A DNA stretch of 4,384 nt from a virus. Its lineage: Duplodnaviria; Heunggongvirae; Uroviricota; Caudoviricetes. Of the stretch, positions 173 to 4,246 are shown piece after piece. The stretch is from IMG/VR virus record IMGVR_UViG_2778261418_000017; one strand, written 5' to 3'. The translations under genes were made by a program, and so were the position numbers. A model generated the notes under the pieces. It was not told the origin of the DNA. It worked only from the letters and a program-made list of their open reading frames with translations, and ran no database searches. Positions within the stretch are counted from its first letter, which is position 1. The number at the start of each line of letters is the position of its first letter.

Positions 173-538
173 TCACTCACTCTCAATTTTGTAAATCTTC
201 ACGCCCAGCCGCCCCCCAGGAACGCGCTGACCGCGCACAATATTGATTTCATCAAACTGCTCGTCGTCTATGAGAAGTCCGGCATGCGTCAGCGCATCCA
301 GTGGAGCTTTCAGGATATTGTCCAGGTCACGACGACGTTTATCCGGTGGCTCTGCAATAATTTTTATTGCCAGCCTTCCGGACAGGTTCAATTTCAGTCG
401 CTGCTGGCGAACAATGAGCGCCACATCACGGCGATAACGCTCACCGGCTTTTGATACAAAATATGTACTGCCACGACGTCGCCAGTAGGTGTTCACCGTC
501 GGCGGGTAAGGCAAAACAAATTCTATGCGTTCAGTCAT
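173..538 (-). CDS. rusA: RusA-family Holliday junction resolvase (crossover junction endodeoxyribonuclease), prophage-encoded
   Basis: 121-aa ORF. The translation (VNTYWRRRG...YRRDVALIV...RRRDLDNILKAPLDALTHAGLLIDDEQFDEINIVRGQ) matches the RusA family as I recall it, about 120 aa with a conserved acidic DxD/DD...E core. ATG at 538-536 directly abuts the TGA stop of the upstream gene (541-539). Confidence 0.8.
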   Translation of the reverse strand: MTERIEFVLPYPPTVNTYWRRRGSTYFVSKAGERYRRDVALIVRQQRLKLNLSGRLAIKIIAEPPDKRRRDLDNILKAPLDALTHAGLLIDDEQFDEINIVRGQRVPGGRLGVKIYKIESE

Positions 539-1597
539 TCATGCTTTCCACTTCAGGACACCCGAATTTCTCGCGTGCATTAAAAAACGAATCAGCAACA
601 ACAGCTGGCTGCCGTGTTTTTCTTCAAAATCTTTTACCCCGGCGTGCAGTTCGTTATGACATTTACGGCACAGCGGAATAACAAACAAATCGTCAGTCTT
701 TGTTCCCATCCCTCCCAGTCCATAGCCAATGATGTGATGCGGATCATCTGCCTGATTGCCACAAGTCATGCATTTCTGCGTTTTTACCCAGCGCGTGTAT
801 ACGGGCATCTCTTCCCGCTGTGGTTTCTGACGCTGGAGATACTGAGTCGGAGACTCCGGATCAACGGCAATGCTGACCACCGTCTTTTCCTGTGGTGGGT
901 TCTGTTGCTGGTGGACGTGAGGCGGTAACGCAATATTTTTTGTGCGCTGCTTCAGCATGCTGGTGGCGGTCGGTTCTCCCGGTATGATGTCGCTTTCGCG
1001 GTACACTGAGCGGATTTTTTCCGCACGTAACCCCAGAGAACGACGTAATACTACCTCCGGTAGTGCGTCCGCCACCTGATTGCAGACAGCCCACCAGGAT
1101 AATTCAGCCAGCGATAATTCCCGCTCCTGCGCGCCATTCATTACATGGCGTATGACGTCAATCATCCATGCTGACAAATTTTGGTGAGCAAGTTGCCCGA
1201 GTGATTCGGAGGTCTGGTCACGCAGCTGGTTGTCGCAGTGCCAGCACAACACCATTGCGCCGGTACCATATCGGTGAATAACGGTTTCGCTGTGATGATA
1301 ATCGCCGTGTGGCCACTGGCAGGATTTGACATGACGCAACAGCCAGTCAGACAGTGCCCCAGCACCACCAGCAGCACGAATCACCCGCTCATCGCTGAAA
1401 AATGGCAGTAATGATTTATCCTCCGCCAGCGGCTGGCGAACAGCAGGAACGACTCCGGACGGCAGACCGCGCATGCTTTTCGGTTCCGGCTCCACCAGAA
1501 CTCGAGGGTTATGAAATACCTGCATGGATTCACGGCCCGGTTTTAGCACCACCAGCCCAAGTTCCGGTACCGGAACAGGTCGAAGTAATACCCGCAC
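539..1597 (-). CDS. YdfU-like prophage protein (DUF968-type) with C-terminal HNH-like zinc-finger motif
   Basis: 352-aa ORF with a GTG start at 1597-1595, preceded by a strong Shine-Dalgarno (CTGGAGGTAAC-GTG on the minus strand). The C-terminus CMTCGNQADDPHHIIGYGLGG...LCRKCHNELH has the CxxC...HH...CxxCH layout of HNH-type nuclease zinc fingers. Size and position between a small protein and rusA/Q match Qin-prophage ydfU as I remember it. Confidence 0.65.
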   Translation of the reverse strand: MRVLLRPVPVPELGLVVLKPGRESMQVFHNPRVLVEPEPKSMRGLPSGVVPAVRQPLAEDKSLLPFFSDERVIRAAGGAGALSDWLLRHVKSCQWPHGDYHHSETVIHRYGTGAMVLCWHCDNQLRDQTSESLGQLAHQNLSAWMIDVIRHVMNGAQERELSLAELSWWAVCNQVADALPEVVLRRSLGLRAEKIRSVYRESDIIPGEPTATSMLKQRTKNIALPPHVHQQQNPPQEKTVVSIAVDPESPTQYLQRQKPQREEMPVYTRWVKTQKCMTCGNQADDPHHIIGYGLGGMGTKTDDLFVIPLCRKCHNELHAGVKDFEEKHGSQLLLLIRFLMHARNSGVLKWKA

Positions 1598-1598
1598 G

Positions 1599-1877
1599 TT
1601 ACCTCCAGATGCGTTGCTGGTATGTGCGGGATGAACGCGGTGGGCGTTCGGAGTAAGGGAGTCTGACTGAGATTATCCAGTGACGGTAGTCGAGGCTAAG
1701 AGCTTTCTTAACCTCGTATCCGCGCCTGCGGTAACACTGAATTATCCATTCCGCCTGCTCTTCAGTGCATGGAGGATGCTGGAACCAATCTGATTTGAAT
1801 GCGTGAAAACGCCGTCCGCACCTACTGGCAAAGACGGCAGAATCATTAGAATTGTGTAATTTGGTATCGTGCGCCAT
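1599..1877 (-). CDS. Small prophage protein of unknown function (92 aa from the internal ATG; the longer 119-aa ORF to 1958 is less likely)
   Basis: Open frame ending in TAA at 1601-1599, three nt before the GTG of the next gene. The longest ORF start (1958) would make the terminator T-tract code FFPGF, so I prefer ATG at 1877-1875 (MAHDTKLHNS...). It occupies the position that rem has downstream of hokD in Qin-type prophages, but I cannot confirm identity from memory. Confidence 0.45.
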   Translation of the reverse strand: MAHDTKLHNSNDSAVFASRCGRRFHAFKSDWFQHPPCTEEQAEWIIQCYRRRGYEVKKALSLDYRHWIISVRLPYSERPPRSSRTYQQRIWR

Positions 1878-1950
1878 CGGTTGTCTCTGCTGGCGCAGCA
1901 GGTGCCAGTTGTTCAGGCTGGCGTGCGGATTGTAAACCAGAAAGCCCGGA

Positions 1951-1976
1951 AAAAACAAAACCCGCCGTAGCGGGTA
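1951..1976 (-). terminator. Rho-independent terminator downstream of the HTH-ImmA gene
   Basis: On the minus strand the sequence reads ACCCGC-UACG-GCGGGU followed by UUUUGUUUUUU: a GC-rich 6-bp stem with a UACG tetraloop and a T-tract (plus coordinates 1961-1975 stem-loop, 1951-1960 tract). It lies immediately 3' of the stop at 1980-1982. Confidence 0.7.
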
Positions 1977-1979
1977 TGC

Positions 1980-3083
1980 TCAAACAATCTGAAAAATATT
2001 TCTTGGATTTGTAATAGGTCGATTGATGGAGAACAACTCACGAATTAAATCTTGACTCAAGCCAGTTTTCATAAGAATGCTTAACCAAGTTGCATCATCC
2101 AGCATGTCAATCGCTTCGGACAGCATACTTGGTTCTTCGGGGCGCAAAAGTTCATCACCAGGTTCAACTCTCGTGTACCCTCTAGAATTAAGATGCATAT
2201 AGCCAGTTCTTGCCTGTTCCTGGGTCAATAGTCCTAATGCACTGGCTCGATAAATACACATTTTAAGGCTAATTTTCCATCTAAGCTTAAATTCAACCAG
2301 AGCACTCCAATCGAATTGCTTACCTCGTATTCGTGGAAATTCTTTAATGAAAGATAGCCTAGGAACCAATAATGCGCTAGAAAAGTGATCAGCTTGTGAT
2401 TCCGTAAGTTTATCACCAGTAGTTATGCCCTCATGCATTACTAAATGCCCTAACTCATGACCTAAATCAGAGCGAAATCTACATATGCTTTTTTTTACAT
2501 TGTTCCTGATAATAACAGGCCTGTTATTGTGAACAGTGAATGCATCAACACGATCATCGACTCCCGTAACATGCGCAACGATTACCCCCAAACTCTCCGC
2601 CAATTTCACCATTGATGATATAGGGCCAAGACCTAGATTCCATGCACGGCGACAATCTTCTGCCACTCGCTCAATATCATTCGGGGTAAGTAATTCAGTT
2701 CCGGGGTGCTCTGGTATGTTGACATCAGGGAATTCGATTTCACCTTCAACAGCAGAAATTATAATATTAAGAATCTCAGCCCTGGCCAAGACACTATTAG
2801 TCAGCGTTTGAGTCCTGGACTTCTTACTCCGAAAATGGCAAACATCGCTTTCCAGAGCATATTTTCGCTCAGTAAATAGAAAATCGGACTTAATCATAAG
2901 AGCTGAGGCTATTAACTCCAAGCATCGCTCTGATGGCCTAAATCCCTTCTCCAATTTGCTAACGAATTGCTTTGTTTTGCCAATTTTTTCGGCCAACTCT
3001 TCACATGAAAGCCCAACAGCCATTCTTGCTAGTTTGAGCTTATCGCCTCGATACTCAGTGAAGTTATTCACCTGATGTTCCAT
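1980..3083 (-). CDS. Fusion protein: N-terminal XRE/Cro-C1-type helix-turn-helix DNA-binding domain plus ImmA/IrrE-family (COG2856, M78-like) zinc metallopeptidase domain with C-terminal extension
   Basis: 367-aa ORF. Residues about 14-70 (LKLARMAVGLSCEELAEKIGKTKQFVSKLEKGFRPSERCLELIASALMIKSDFL) follow the canonical XRE HTH pattern. Residues 209-213 are HELGH (plus 2445-2459), in the context SDLGHELGHLVMHEG typical of ImmA/IrrE peptidases. Shine-Dalgarno-like GAGCAG precedes the ATG at 3083-3081. AT-rich codon usage. Confidence 0.85.
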   Translation of the reverse strand: MEHQVNNFTEYRGDKLKLARMAVGLSCEELAEKIGKTKQFVSKLEKGFRPSERCLELIASALMIKSDFLFTERKYALESDVCHFRSKKSRTQTLTNSVLARAEILNIIISAVEGEIEFPDVNIPEHPGTELLTPNDIERVAEDCRRAWNLGLGPISSMVKLAESLGVIVAHVTGVDDRVDAFTVHNNRPVIIRNNVKKSICRFRSDLGHELGHLVMHEGITTGDKLTESQADHFSSALLVPRLSFIKEFPRIRGKQFDWSALVEFKLRWKISLKMCIYRASALGLLTQEQARTGYMHLNSRGYTRVEPGDELLRPEEPSMLSEAIDMLDDATWLSILMKTGLSQDLIRELFSINRPITNPRNIFQIV

Positions 3084-3714
3084 TACTGCTCACATCCAAA
3101 TTTTTATCCTTCGTACGCCGACGAAGAGACACCTTATTAATCTCCGCTTCGCCAGGGAGTGTGTTACCGTCAAGGGACATAAGTGGCATTGATGCTGTAG
3201 ATTGATGAGAAACCATACTAATCTGAGCACCATAGGTATTAAACCCAACAAGAGCCACCTCCCAACGAGGCAGTGTGGACTCTAATTCACCATCTCCCTC
3301 TTCGGATAAAAATGGCTCCGCTATGACTCGCCATGTAATATCTTGCTCAGCCTCAACATCACCAAACAATGAAAGCTGCTCATGCTCTACTTTATTTCGA
3401 CGCAGGCGATGTTTCTTTTTGGGGTTATTAATGCAATCTTTGGTAAATTGTAGCGGAACTTTATTTAAAGCAACTACATAGTCCAACCCCTTGGAAATCA
3501 TCTTAAGACCAGGAATTGCGCCTTCATTTTGAATAAGATGGTTTCTGACCCAATCATAAGCCCTTACACCTTCAGACCAGTTGCTGTCTAATACGTGCTT
3601 ATGATAGTACAACTGCTCAAGTACGTTAGCGATCTCCGCCAACAACTGGCGAACATTGCTTTCAGCAAGATAAGGTTGAAATTCCCAACAAGGAGCTAAC
3701 TGATTTTCATTCAT
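3064..3714 (-). CDS. Hypothetical protein, 216 aa, no recognisable family; first gene of the two-gene cassette
   Basis: Long uninterrupted ORF, antisense only to a short shadow ORF. ATG at 3714-3712, TAA at 3066-3064, overlapping the downstream HTH-ImmA start by 20 nt. Contains a basic stretch PKKKHRLRRNK (residues 98-108, plus 3391-3423) flanked by acidic segments. I recognise no catalytic motif. Confidence 0.7.
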   Translation of the reverse strand: MNENQLAPCWEFQPYLAESNVRQLLAEIANVLEQLYYHKHVLDSNWSEGVRAYDWVRNHLIQNEGAIPGLKMISKGLDYVVALNKVPLQFTKDCINNPKKKHRLRRNKVEHEQLSLFGDVEAEQDITWRVIAEPFLSEEGDGELESTLPRWEVALVGFNTYGAQISMVSHQSTASMPLMSLDGNTLPGEAEINKVSLRRRTKDKNLDVSSNGTSGE

Positions 3715-3744
3715 TTCAAGTTTCGCTTTTTTTAGAATTCGTAA

Positions 3745-3778
3745 ACCTTATATTTTCGCATTTTCCTGTTTTTGTCAA
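3745..3778 (-). promoter_or_regulatory. Putative sigma70 promoter for the two-gene cassette
   Basis: On the minus strand a perfect -35 TTGACA (plus 3773-3778) is followed by A/T-rich candidate -10 hexamers (AAATAT at 17-nt spacing, or TATAAG at 20 nt), about 40 nt upstream of the ATG at 3714. The -10 assignment is ambiguous. Confidence 0.4.
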
Positions 3779-3793
3779 CCAGACTAATGCATA

Positions 3794-3811
3794 AACCCGC
3801 CGAAGCGGGTT
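3794..3811 (-). terminator. GC-rich stem-loop (UUCG tetraloop) downstream of hok; probable terminator or 3' stabiliser
   Basis: Plus sequence aacccgc-cgaa-gcgggtt. On the minus strand this is AACCCGC-UUCG-GCGGGUU followed by UAUGCAUU, a moderately U-rich tail. It is nearly identical to the hairpin at 1961-1975. Confidence 0.5.
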
Positions 3812-3850
3812 ACGTGCGGGTGCGTTGAGGATGCCTGCCACATCAGAGGT

Positions 3851-3872
3851 GGCGAGGGATTTCTCCCTCGCC
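3851..3872 (-). other. Perfect 9-bp stem-loop immediately 3' of the hok stop (hok mRNA 3'-end structure)
   Basis: ggcgaggga-tttc-tccctcgcc is a perfect inverted repeat with a 4-nt loop, starting 8 nt after the hok stop codon. It has no T-tract, so it is more likely an mRNA 3' structural element than a terminator. Hok mRNAs are known to carry structured 3' ends. Confidence 0.5.
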
Positions 3873-3879
3873 TGGTCTC

Positions 3880-4035
3880 TTACTCCTCAGGTTCGTAAGC
3901 TGTGAAGACAGCGACCTCCGTCTGGCCGGTTCGGATTCGTACCTCGCAGAGGTCTTTCCTCGTTACCAGTGCCGTCACTATGACGGTTAAACAGATGACG
4001 ATAAGGGCGATTAACATCGCCTTTTGCTGCTTCAT
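3880..4035 (-). CDS. hokD: Hok/Gef-family small membrane toxin (type I toxin), HokD/RelF-like
   Basis: 51-aa translation MKQQKAMLIALIVICLTVIVTALVTRKDLCEVRIRTGQTEVAVFTAYEPEE matches E. coli HokD as I recall it: single transmembrane helix, conserved Cys, acidic tail. Strong Shine-Dalgarno AAGGAG lies 9 nt upstream of the ATG at 4035-4033. The ORF track shows an in-frame 19-codon upstream extension (ATG at 4092). Confidence 0.85.
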   Translation of the reverse strand: MKQQKAMLIALIVICLTVIVTALVTRKDLCEVRIRTGQTEVAVFTAYEPEE

Positions 4036-4156
4036 AGCCTGCTTCTCCTTGCCTTTCGGCACGTAAGAGGCTAACCTACATTTGTGAGACATAGATTGGG
4101 CCTCAGATTAATGTTAAGCGTCCTGCAAGACGCGTAATGTTAACTGGGGCTTTTCT

Positions 4157-4193
4157 CTATCTGCCTTTTGGTGTTCATGCCTGAGGCAGATAG
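4157..4193. promoter_or_regulatory. 9-bp perfect inverted repeat (ctatctgcc ... ggcagatag) in the hok upstream leader; candidate RNA structure or operator
   Basis: ctatctgcc at 4157-4165 is the exact reverse complement of ggcagatag at 4185-4193, with a 19-nt spacer. A second overlapping imperfect hairpin is tgaggc-agata-gcctca at 4182-4198. It sits where the hok mRNA 5' regulatory region would be. Confidence 0.3.
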
Positions 4194-4246
4194 CCTCAAG
4201 CACCCGCAGCAATTCTACTTAACTCTCCTTTTCCCGCAAACCGTTT

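Follow-up and report, generated by a model that had tools for sequence, protein, structure and literature searches.

A 20-nt overlap at the toxin-antitoxin gene junction of a predicted RosmerTA-type cassette in an Escherichia coli prophage

We consider it probable that the 20 nt shared by rmrT and rmrA, two minus-strand genes in a 4,384-nt stretch of virus DNA (IMG/VR record IMGVR_UViG_2778261418_000017, hereafter the window), form the internal junction of a bicistronic RosmerTA-type toxin-antitoxin operon in which antitoxin synthesis is linked to toxin synthesis. The overlap itself, already present in RefSeq annotation, is nothing out of the ordinary for this known system. On the minus strand, the rmrT-like open reading frame runs from 3714 to 3064 and ends in the codons AAT GGA ACA TCA GGT GAA TAA (stop at 3066-3064), and the frame encoding the HTH/ImmA protein runs from 3083 to 1980, begins with the ATG at 3083-3081 and lies one base out of register with rmrT, such that 3083-3064 are common to both genes. 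This reading, together with the NCBI PGAP/RefSeq annotation of E. coli 14EC001 and 118UI, which holds both coding sequences and the identical overlap, bears out the original prediction of a 20-nt out-of-frame overlap between that stop and that ATG. The cassette was present at a query coverage of at least 80% in 237 of 5,426 complete E. coli genomes. Inspection of the sequence led us to reject a programmed frameshift yielding a toxin-antitoxin fusion: the rmrA frame is +1 with respect to that of rmrT, and no slippery heptamer occurs in the overlap. The two genes, their domains and the overlap are located as follows.

3064..3714, minus strand: rmrT, encoding a 216-aa putative toxin in which no Pfam domain was found (PADLOC RmrT PDLC03929; phrog_5786; homologue of the E101 toxin)
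1980..3083, minus strand: rmrA, encoding a predicted 367-aa antitoxin, an XRE-type HTH fused to an ImmA/IrrE (M78) Zn-peptidase (PADLOC; Pfam; homology to E101_02644)
2898..3038, minus strand: HTH_3 domain of RmrA, residues 16-62, starting 5 codons ahead of Met21 (Pfam)
2241..2558, minus strand: Peptidase_M78 domain of RmrA, residues 176-281 (Pfam)
3064..3083, minus strand: 20-nt out-of-frame overlap from the rmrA ATG to the rmrT TAA (sequence; RefSeq; the 20-nt stretch of lowest diversity in the operon)

The 216-aa protein matched its PADLOC RmrT model with an E value of 3.5e-25, and the 367-aa protein matched the RmrA model PDLC03943 (E 3.7e-105) along with 13 further RmrA models, as well as the PADLOC models capP (1.9e-14) and capH (1.6e-05). 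These RmrT and RmrA matches uphold the earlier claim that the two co-oriented genes make up a single toxin-antitoxin or defence cassette. The HExxH motif of RmrA is H209-E-L-G-H213, encoded at 2459-2445, and H209, E210 and H213 are invariant among relatives. RosmerTA systems are defined by an antitoxin that carries an ImmA/IrrE (M78) Zn-peptidase, usually with an N-terminal HTH, and by an adjacent, co-oriented toxin gene from one of the heterogeneous RmrT families; RmrA has this architecture and rmrT this position. Judged by sequence, the pair appears to be a RosmerTA-type toxin-antitoxin/anti-phage cassette of an already catalogued kind, resident in an E. coli prophage, with putative toxicity, putative neutralisation by RmrA and putative anti-phage activity of the window allele.

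The order of genes on the minus strand is hokD with sok, rmrT, rmrA, a small ORF, a DUF968/HNH gene and RusA, and rmrTA occupies a cargo slot, running from hokD to DUF968/RusA, within the late-regulatory part of a lambdoid prophage. The type I toxin gene hokD lies directly upstream of rmrTA (window 3880-4205, minus strand; Pfam HOK_GEF, 3e-23) and is accompanied by an Rfam match to sok at 4030-4205 (RF01794, 121.7 bits), so that two toxin systems of different types, hok/sok and rmrTA, adjoin. The small ORF that separates rmrA from the DUF968 gene (1599-1958, minus strand) matches phrog_1212 (unknown function) over its C-terminal 66 residues, has a shorter, 92-aa PGAP version in relatives, and stops 1 nt ahead of the GTG start of the DUF968/HNH gene (539-1597). 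Scanning for signals and inspection by eye placed two elements at the flanks of the cassette.

1950..1975, minus strand: intrinsic terminator-like hairpin with T-run, 5 nt past the rmrA stop, at the end of the operon (terminator scan)
3730..3778, minus strand: candidate rmrTA promoter/operator with TTGACA (3778-3773), TATAAG (3752-3747) and a GAATTC palindrome (3745-3730) (by eye)

The TTGACA and TATAAG motifs are separated by a non-canonical 20-nt spacer, and the promoter scan did not report this region, which may comprise a promoter and an RmrA operator. Upstream of rmrT, the hok terminator (3810-3792) stands between hok and rmrTA. At the rmrT-rmrA junction and in its vicinity, the consensus scan reported neither a promoter-like nor a terminator-like site; the weak matches that it gave inside genes (2789-2761, promoter-like; 3273-3255 and 2792-2773, terminator-like) were about as numerous as in shuffled sequence. 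Nor did it detect an internal rmrA promoter within rmrT, the sole promoter-like hit of the cassette lying inside rmrA and the hit total being at chance level. Overlap, scan and flanking terminators together describe a bicistronic operon with no internal terminator or promoter detected, as is typical of type II toxin-antitoxin modules, and we infer that rmrT and rmrA are co-transcribed.

The original prediction had named a downstream rmrA start as the finding that would abolish the overlap. Between the upstream in-frame stop and rmrA codon 19, the only start codons are ATG1, which gives an overlap of 20 nt, and GTG5, which gives one of 8 nt; the next is Met21 (ATG 3023-3021), and if RmrA began there the start would be mis-annotated and no overlap would exist. 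Such a start, chosen by some automatic gene calls of homologues (P0009, P0031), is scarcely tenable in light of the conservation ahead of it. Across the 27 distinct sequences of the clade with at least 84% identity, RmrA residues 11-20 (YRGDKLKLAR) undergo no amino-acid change; several of these positions (R12, G13, L18, A19, R20) use two to four synonymous codons each. Because the amino acids are invariant while the codons vary synonymously, codons 11-20 are evidently translated, and the pattern points to purifying selection on them. Moreover, L16, L18, A19 and R20 are invariant or nearly so in 40 relatives and Met21 is not conserved, the Pfam HTH_3 domain already begins at residue 16, and the P0009 contig encodes YRGDKLRLAR in frame ahead of the called start, the call (at the Met21 equivalent) having passed over an in-frame MQLFDSELNYRGDKLRLAR, from whose ATG the overlap with the upstream gene measures 14 nt. 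The conservation of codons 11-20, the limits of HTH_3 and the P0009 contig effectively refute Met21 as the RmrA start. With ATG1 and GTG5, both inside rmrT, as the only start codons upstream of this translated segment, no downstream start can do away with the rmrA-rmrT overlap, which measures 20 nt from ATG1 and at minimum 8 nt from GTG5. The automatic calls of three RmrA homologues, P0009, P0026 and P0031 (L163 1444-1501), begin at an internal Met (the Met21 equivalent or one within helix 1); apparently these calls avoid an overlap and in doing so lose the conserved start of the HTH.

Two elements near the rmrA start bear on how it might be recognised.

3090..3097, minus strand: SD-like GGATGTGA, 6 nt upstream of ATG1, a 7/8 match to GGAGGTGA (16S pairing; near-invariant in the clade)
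3069..3071, minus strand: GTG, rmrA codon 5, an alternative start that would give the canonical 8-nt overlap GTGAATAA (clade alignment)

ATG1 sits in the motif ATGGAAC, which is shared with the clade of 55-66% identity; in several members of that clade, where the overlap with the toxin gene measures 14 nt, no start other than the ATG1 equivalent is possible. GTG5 is invariant in the clade of at least 72% identity, including one locus (L050) with AAG at the ATG1 position. The SD-like stretch doubles as the Asp-Val codons of the RmrT tail. Pairing of the rmrA site (GGAUGUGA) with the 13-nt 3' end of 16S rRNA (GAUCACCUCCUUA) was computed at -8.8 kcal/mol, within the top 6% of operon positions, and with the 9-nt core at -4.0 kcal/mol, a moderate SD that may allow independent initiation. 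GTG5 has no SD of its own (-3.3 kcal/mol, equal to the operon median). Local RNA folding at the junction showed no extra stability over shuffled sequence (MFE z = -0.19), and a small hairpin comprising the SD and AUG had a consensus energy of only -4.2 kcal/mol and 0 compensatory pairs in the covariation analysis. Coupling through the unfolding of an RNA structure that occludes the rmrA ribosome-binding site thus found no support.

Comparison of homologues revealed that the RmrT C-terminus is charged, variable in length and not conserved, and the AlphaFold2 model of RmrT (mean pLDDT 69, pTM 0.66) has residues 175-216 mostly below a pLDDT of 50 and without secondary structure, indicating that the antitoxin SD and start codon are written into a toxin tail that is predicted to be disordered. 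In the clade with at least 84% identity, the mean nucleotide diversity (π) of the 20-nt overlap was 0.051, compared to 0.145 across rmrT and 0.139 across rmrA; equally invariant segments made up only 0.2% of the 20-nt segments of the operon, which contained no indels. Lowered diversity across the overlap is what dual coding predicts. The 20-nt geometry recurs in 18 distinct junction sequences (70 loci) with RmrA identities of 73-100%, and this retention together with the low diversity shows that the overlap is kept beyond chance.

A survey of relatives revealed that the exact length of the overlap is not the feature that persists. Alignment-based viral and metagenome scans yielded 161 loci with RmrA relatives of 39-99% identity, compared to one locus from a single-protein contig search. 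At 75 distinct junctions, a co-oriented ORF of at least 100 aa lies upstream, and in 72 of them this ORF is an RmrT homologue. Among these 72 junctions, 55 overlap by 8-35 nt (one at -35, 18 at -20, two at -17, nine at -14, three at -11 and 22 at -8), 16 are spaced by 1-10 nt (two at +1, one at +2, nine at +5, one at +7 and three at +10) and one is disrupted; in the 71 intact junctions, spacers never exceed 10 nt. The 20-nt overlap is restricted to alleles from enterobacteria with an identity of at least 73%, the 14-nt overlap (ATGGAACTGTTTGA) represents the 55-66% clade and the 8-nt overlap (ATGAATGA or ATGAATAA) a clade of about 45% identity, and SDs are weak in most of the 8- and 14-nt junctions. 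All overlaps are in the phase -8/-11/-14/-17/-20, the commoner one for long overlaps (Huber et al., 2023). Because the junctions of relatives range from -35 to +10 nt, 20 nt is no functional constant; what is conserved is a tight toxin-antitoxin junction within that range, whose exact length drifts. Near-identical DNA was not found in isolated phage records, where a protein search gave distant RmrA relatives only. In one metagenome contig (L103, OBZA01000952.1), the RmrT frame appears disrupted, with open stretches of 174 and 88 aa upstream of an intact rmrA, and this locus may be an orphan antitoxin left behind by toxin decay.

Overlapping or closely spaced gene pairs are commonly coupled in translation (review PMC12548453; Huber et al., 2023), and the rmrT stop overlaps the rmrA start at -20 nt (-8 nt from GTG5). 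Because the junction is tight family-wide and the SDs are mostly weak, coupling of rmrT and rmrA is a reasonable hypothesis and, on these sequence grounds, plausible. The stronger wording of the original prediction, that the overlap implies coupling, is not supported, given that long overlaps couple poorly and rmrA has an SD of its own, and the fixed stoichiometry that it derived from the overlap does not follow. The optimum for coupling lies at -4 to +3 nt, and growing overlap costs more than growing spacing (review PMC12548453); by about +20 nt coupling is gone (Huber et al., 2023). The antitoxin ribosome-binding site and ATG reside inside the last 7-12 toxin codons, a disordered and poorly conserved tail that tolerates dual coding, and we propose that one mRNA would serve toxin and antitoxin, no internal promoter or terminator having been detected and terminators standing on both flanks. 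Ribosomes finishing rmrT at 3064 would be released at a point 8-20 nt past the rmrA start sites, where they could hold the region unfolded or re-initiate, adding to SD-driven de novo initiation at ATG 3083, and antitoxin synthesis would thereby be tied to toxin synthesis. With its start at -20 nt and a moderate SD, rmrA probably draws on both de novo initiation and coupled ribosomes, and re-initiation could take place at GTG5 (-8 nt). RmrT would probably be neutralised by RmrA, with autoregulation through the RmrA HTH, and the 20-nt length would be a lineage-specific result of stop-codon drift in the toxin tail.

The same drift could also have produced the overlap as a neutral by-product, with the stop wandering in a tail free of constraint and rmrA relying on its own SD for independent translation, an explanation that we regard as possible but doubtful. 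The variation of the junction distance among homologues, the disordered, unconserved tail, the moderate SD ahead of the window rmrA and the poor coupling at long overlaps (review PMC12548453) are all compatible with it, as is the 10-nt spacer of the validated E101 allele, which counts against any requirement for an overlap. Drift of this kind is harder to reconcile with the absence of spacers above 10 nt from all 71 intact distinct junctions and with the predominance of overlaps (55/72), and the 8- and 14-nt clades, mostly without a usable SD, are awkward for purely independent initiation. GTG5 (3071-3069) might itself be the functional rmrA start, at least for re-initiating ribosomes, within an overlap of the common 8-nt NTGNNTRA type, ATG1 then serving only or additionally de novo initiation. 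This is unlikely, albeit in keeping with the persistence of GTG5 where ATG1 is replaced by AAG, with the resemblance of GTGAATAA to the ATGAATGA/ATGAATAA junction of the clade at about 45% identity, and with work on the phage fr coat-lysis junction, in which scanning ribosomes took the start nearest the stop codon (review PMC12548453). GTG5 lacks an SD, ATG1 and its ATGGAAC context are kept down to 55% identity, with ATG1 the only start in the 55-66% clade, and nearly all bases of the overlap are invariant, so the conservation of GTG5 is not specific evidence. More speculative still, and in our view improbable, is a division of labour in which ATG1 and its SD would serve free ribosomes and GTG5 those leaving the toxin gene; if true, two RmrA proteoforms would exist, 4 N-terminal residues apart, antitoxin synthesis would be in part strictly tied to the toxin and in part independent, and changes in translation induced by phage could shift the balance and release the toxin.

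A toxin-antitoxin junction that stays tight while its geometry drifts is consistent with selection for linked expression of the two proteins, and the junction survey adds no new principle beyond this. For annotation, rmrT and rmrA, RosmerTA-type toxin-antitoxin/defence cargo of the hokD-DUF968 slot, should replace the labels 'hypothetical' and 'HTH protein', and the overlapping ATG should be retained as the rmrA start, since some gene callers cut the HTH by avoiding the overlap.

Millman et al. (2022) introduced RosmerTA as a defence system that combines a Zn-peptidase antitoxin with toxins whose function is unknown, and diverse RmrT toxins are partnered with the RmrA protease antitoxin (Ernits et al.). 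The window cassette resembles the verified system of E. coli OLC-716 in its two-gene organization and in an antitoxin with an N-terminal HTH and an ImmA-like Zn-peptidase (Millman et al., 2022); to judge by the numbering and strand in Table S11, the OLC-716 toxin gene also appears to lie upstream of the antitoxin gene. The ΔrmrA mutant of the verified system could not be transformed (Millman et al., 2022). The 239-aa RmrT of OLC-716 has no detectable similarity to the window RmrT (BLASTP E 8.8; hhalign probability 2.7%), and a relationship between the two toxins was rejected; RosmerTA toxins are a heterogeneous set. Phage protection has been reported for other RosmerTA systems, whose toxins are unrelated to the window RmrT (Millman et al., 2022; Ernits et al.).

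A further counterpart is E101_02645/E101_02644 (WP_001179380.1/WP_000481765.1), an experimentally validated prophage toxin-antitoxin module in which knock-down of clpP releases the upstream toxin (Rousset et al., 2021). This module is homologous to that of the window, with 24% identity between the toxins (E 9e-14) and 43% between the antitoxins (WP_000481765.1 = E101_02644). The E101-type toxin used in the comparison was WP_001179381.1, a neighbouring accession that we take to be a close variant of the published WP_001179380.1. The E101-type allele has the same gene order and occupies the same slot as the window cassette (hok - T - A - small ORF - DUF968 - RusA), but its sequences are strongly diverged and its two genes are separated by a 10-nt spacer, with GTG as the antitoxin start, compared to the 20-nt overlap of the window. 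In E. coli UMNF18 (L162), positions 1226-4700 correspond to window 173-4092 and hold a diverged rmrTA allele in the same hok...DUF968-RusA slot; its antitoxin is WP_000481765.1, the accession given for E101_02644 by Rousset et al. (2021). The UMNF18 and window alleles look like a replacement of defence cargo at a fixed hotspot.

ImmR/ImmA of ICEBs1 and CapH/CapP of CBASS likewise combine an XRE HTH with an ImmA/IrrE metallopeptidase, both of which are present in RmrA, and the ImmA/ImmR analogy has been discussed previously (PMC10440598). In those systems, HTH and protease reside on different polypeptides, and a signal triggers cleavage of the repressor by the protease, whereas RmrA is a fusion paired with a toxin. 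With respect to the junction, rmrT-rmrA is similar to coupled overlapping pairs that act by termination-reinitiation, including the long-overlap cases of fr/MS2 coat-lysis, in that the genes are co-oriented and the downstream start lies inside the upstream 3' end, and its overlap belongs to the commoner 'phase 1' series (-8, -11, -14, -17, -20). Typical coupled pairs are positioned at -4, -1 or -8 nt, whereas rmrT-rmrA is at -20 nt, where a lower efficiency of coupling is expected (PMC12548453).
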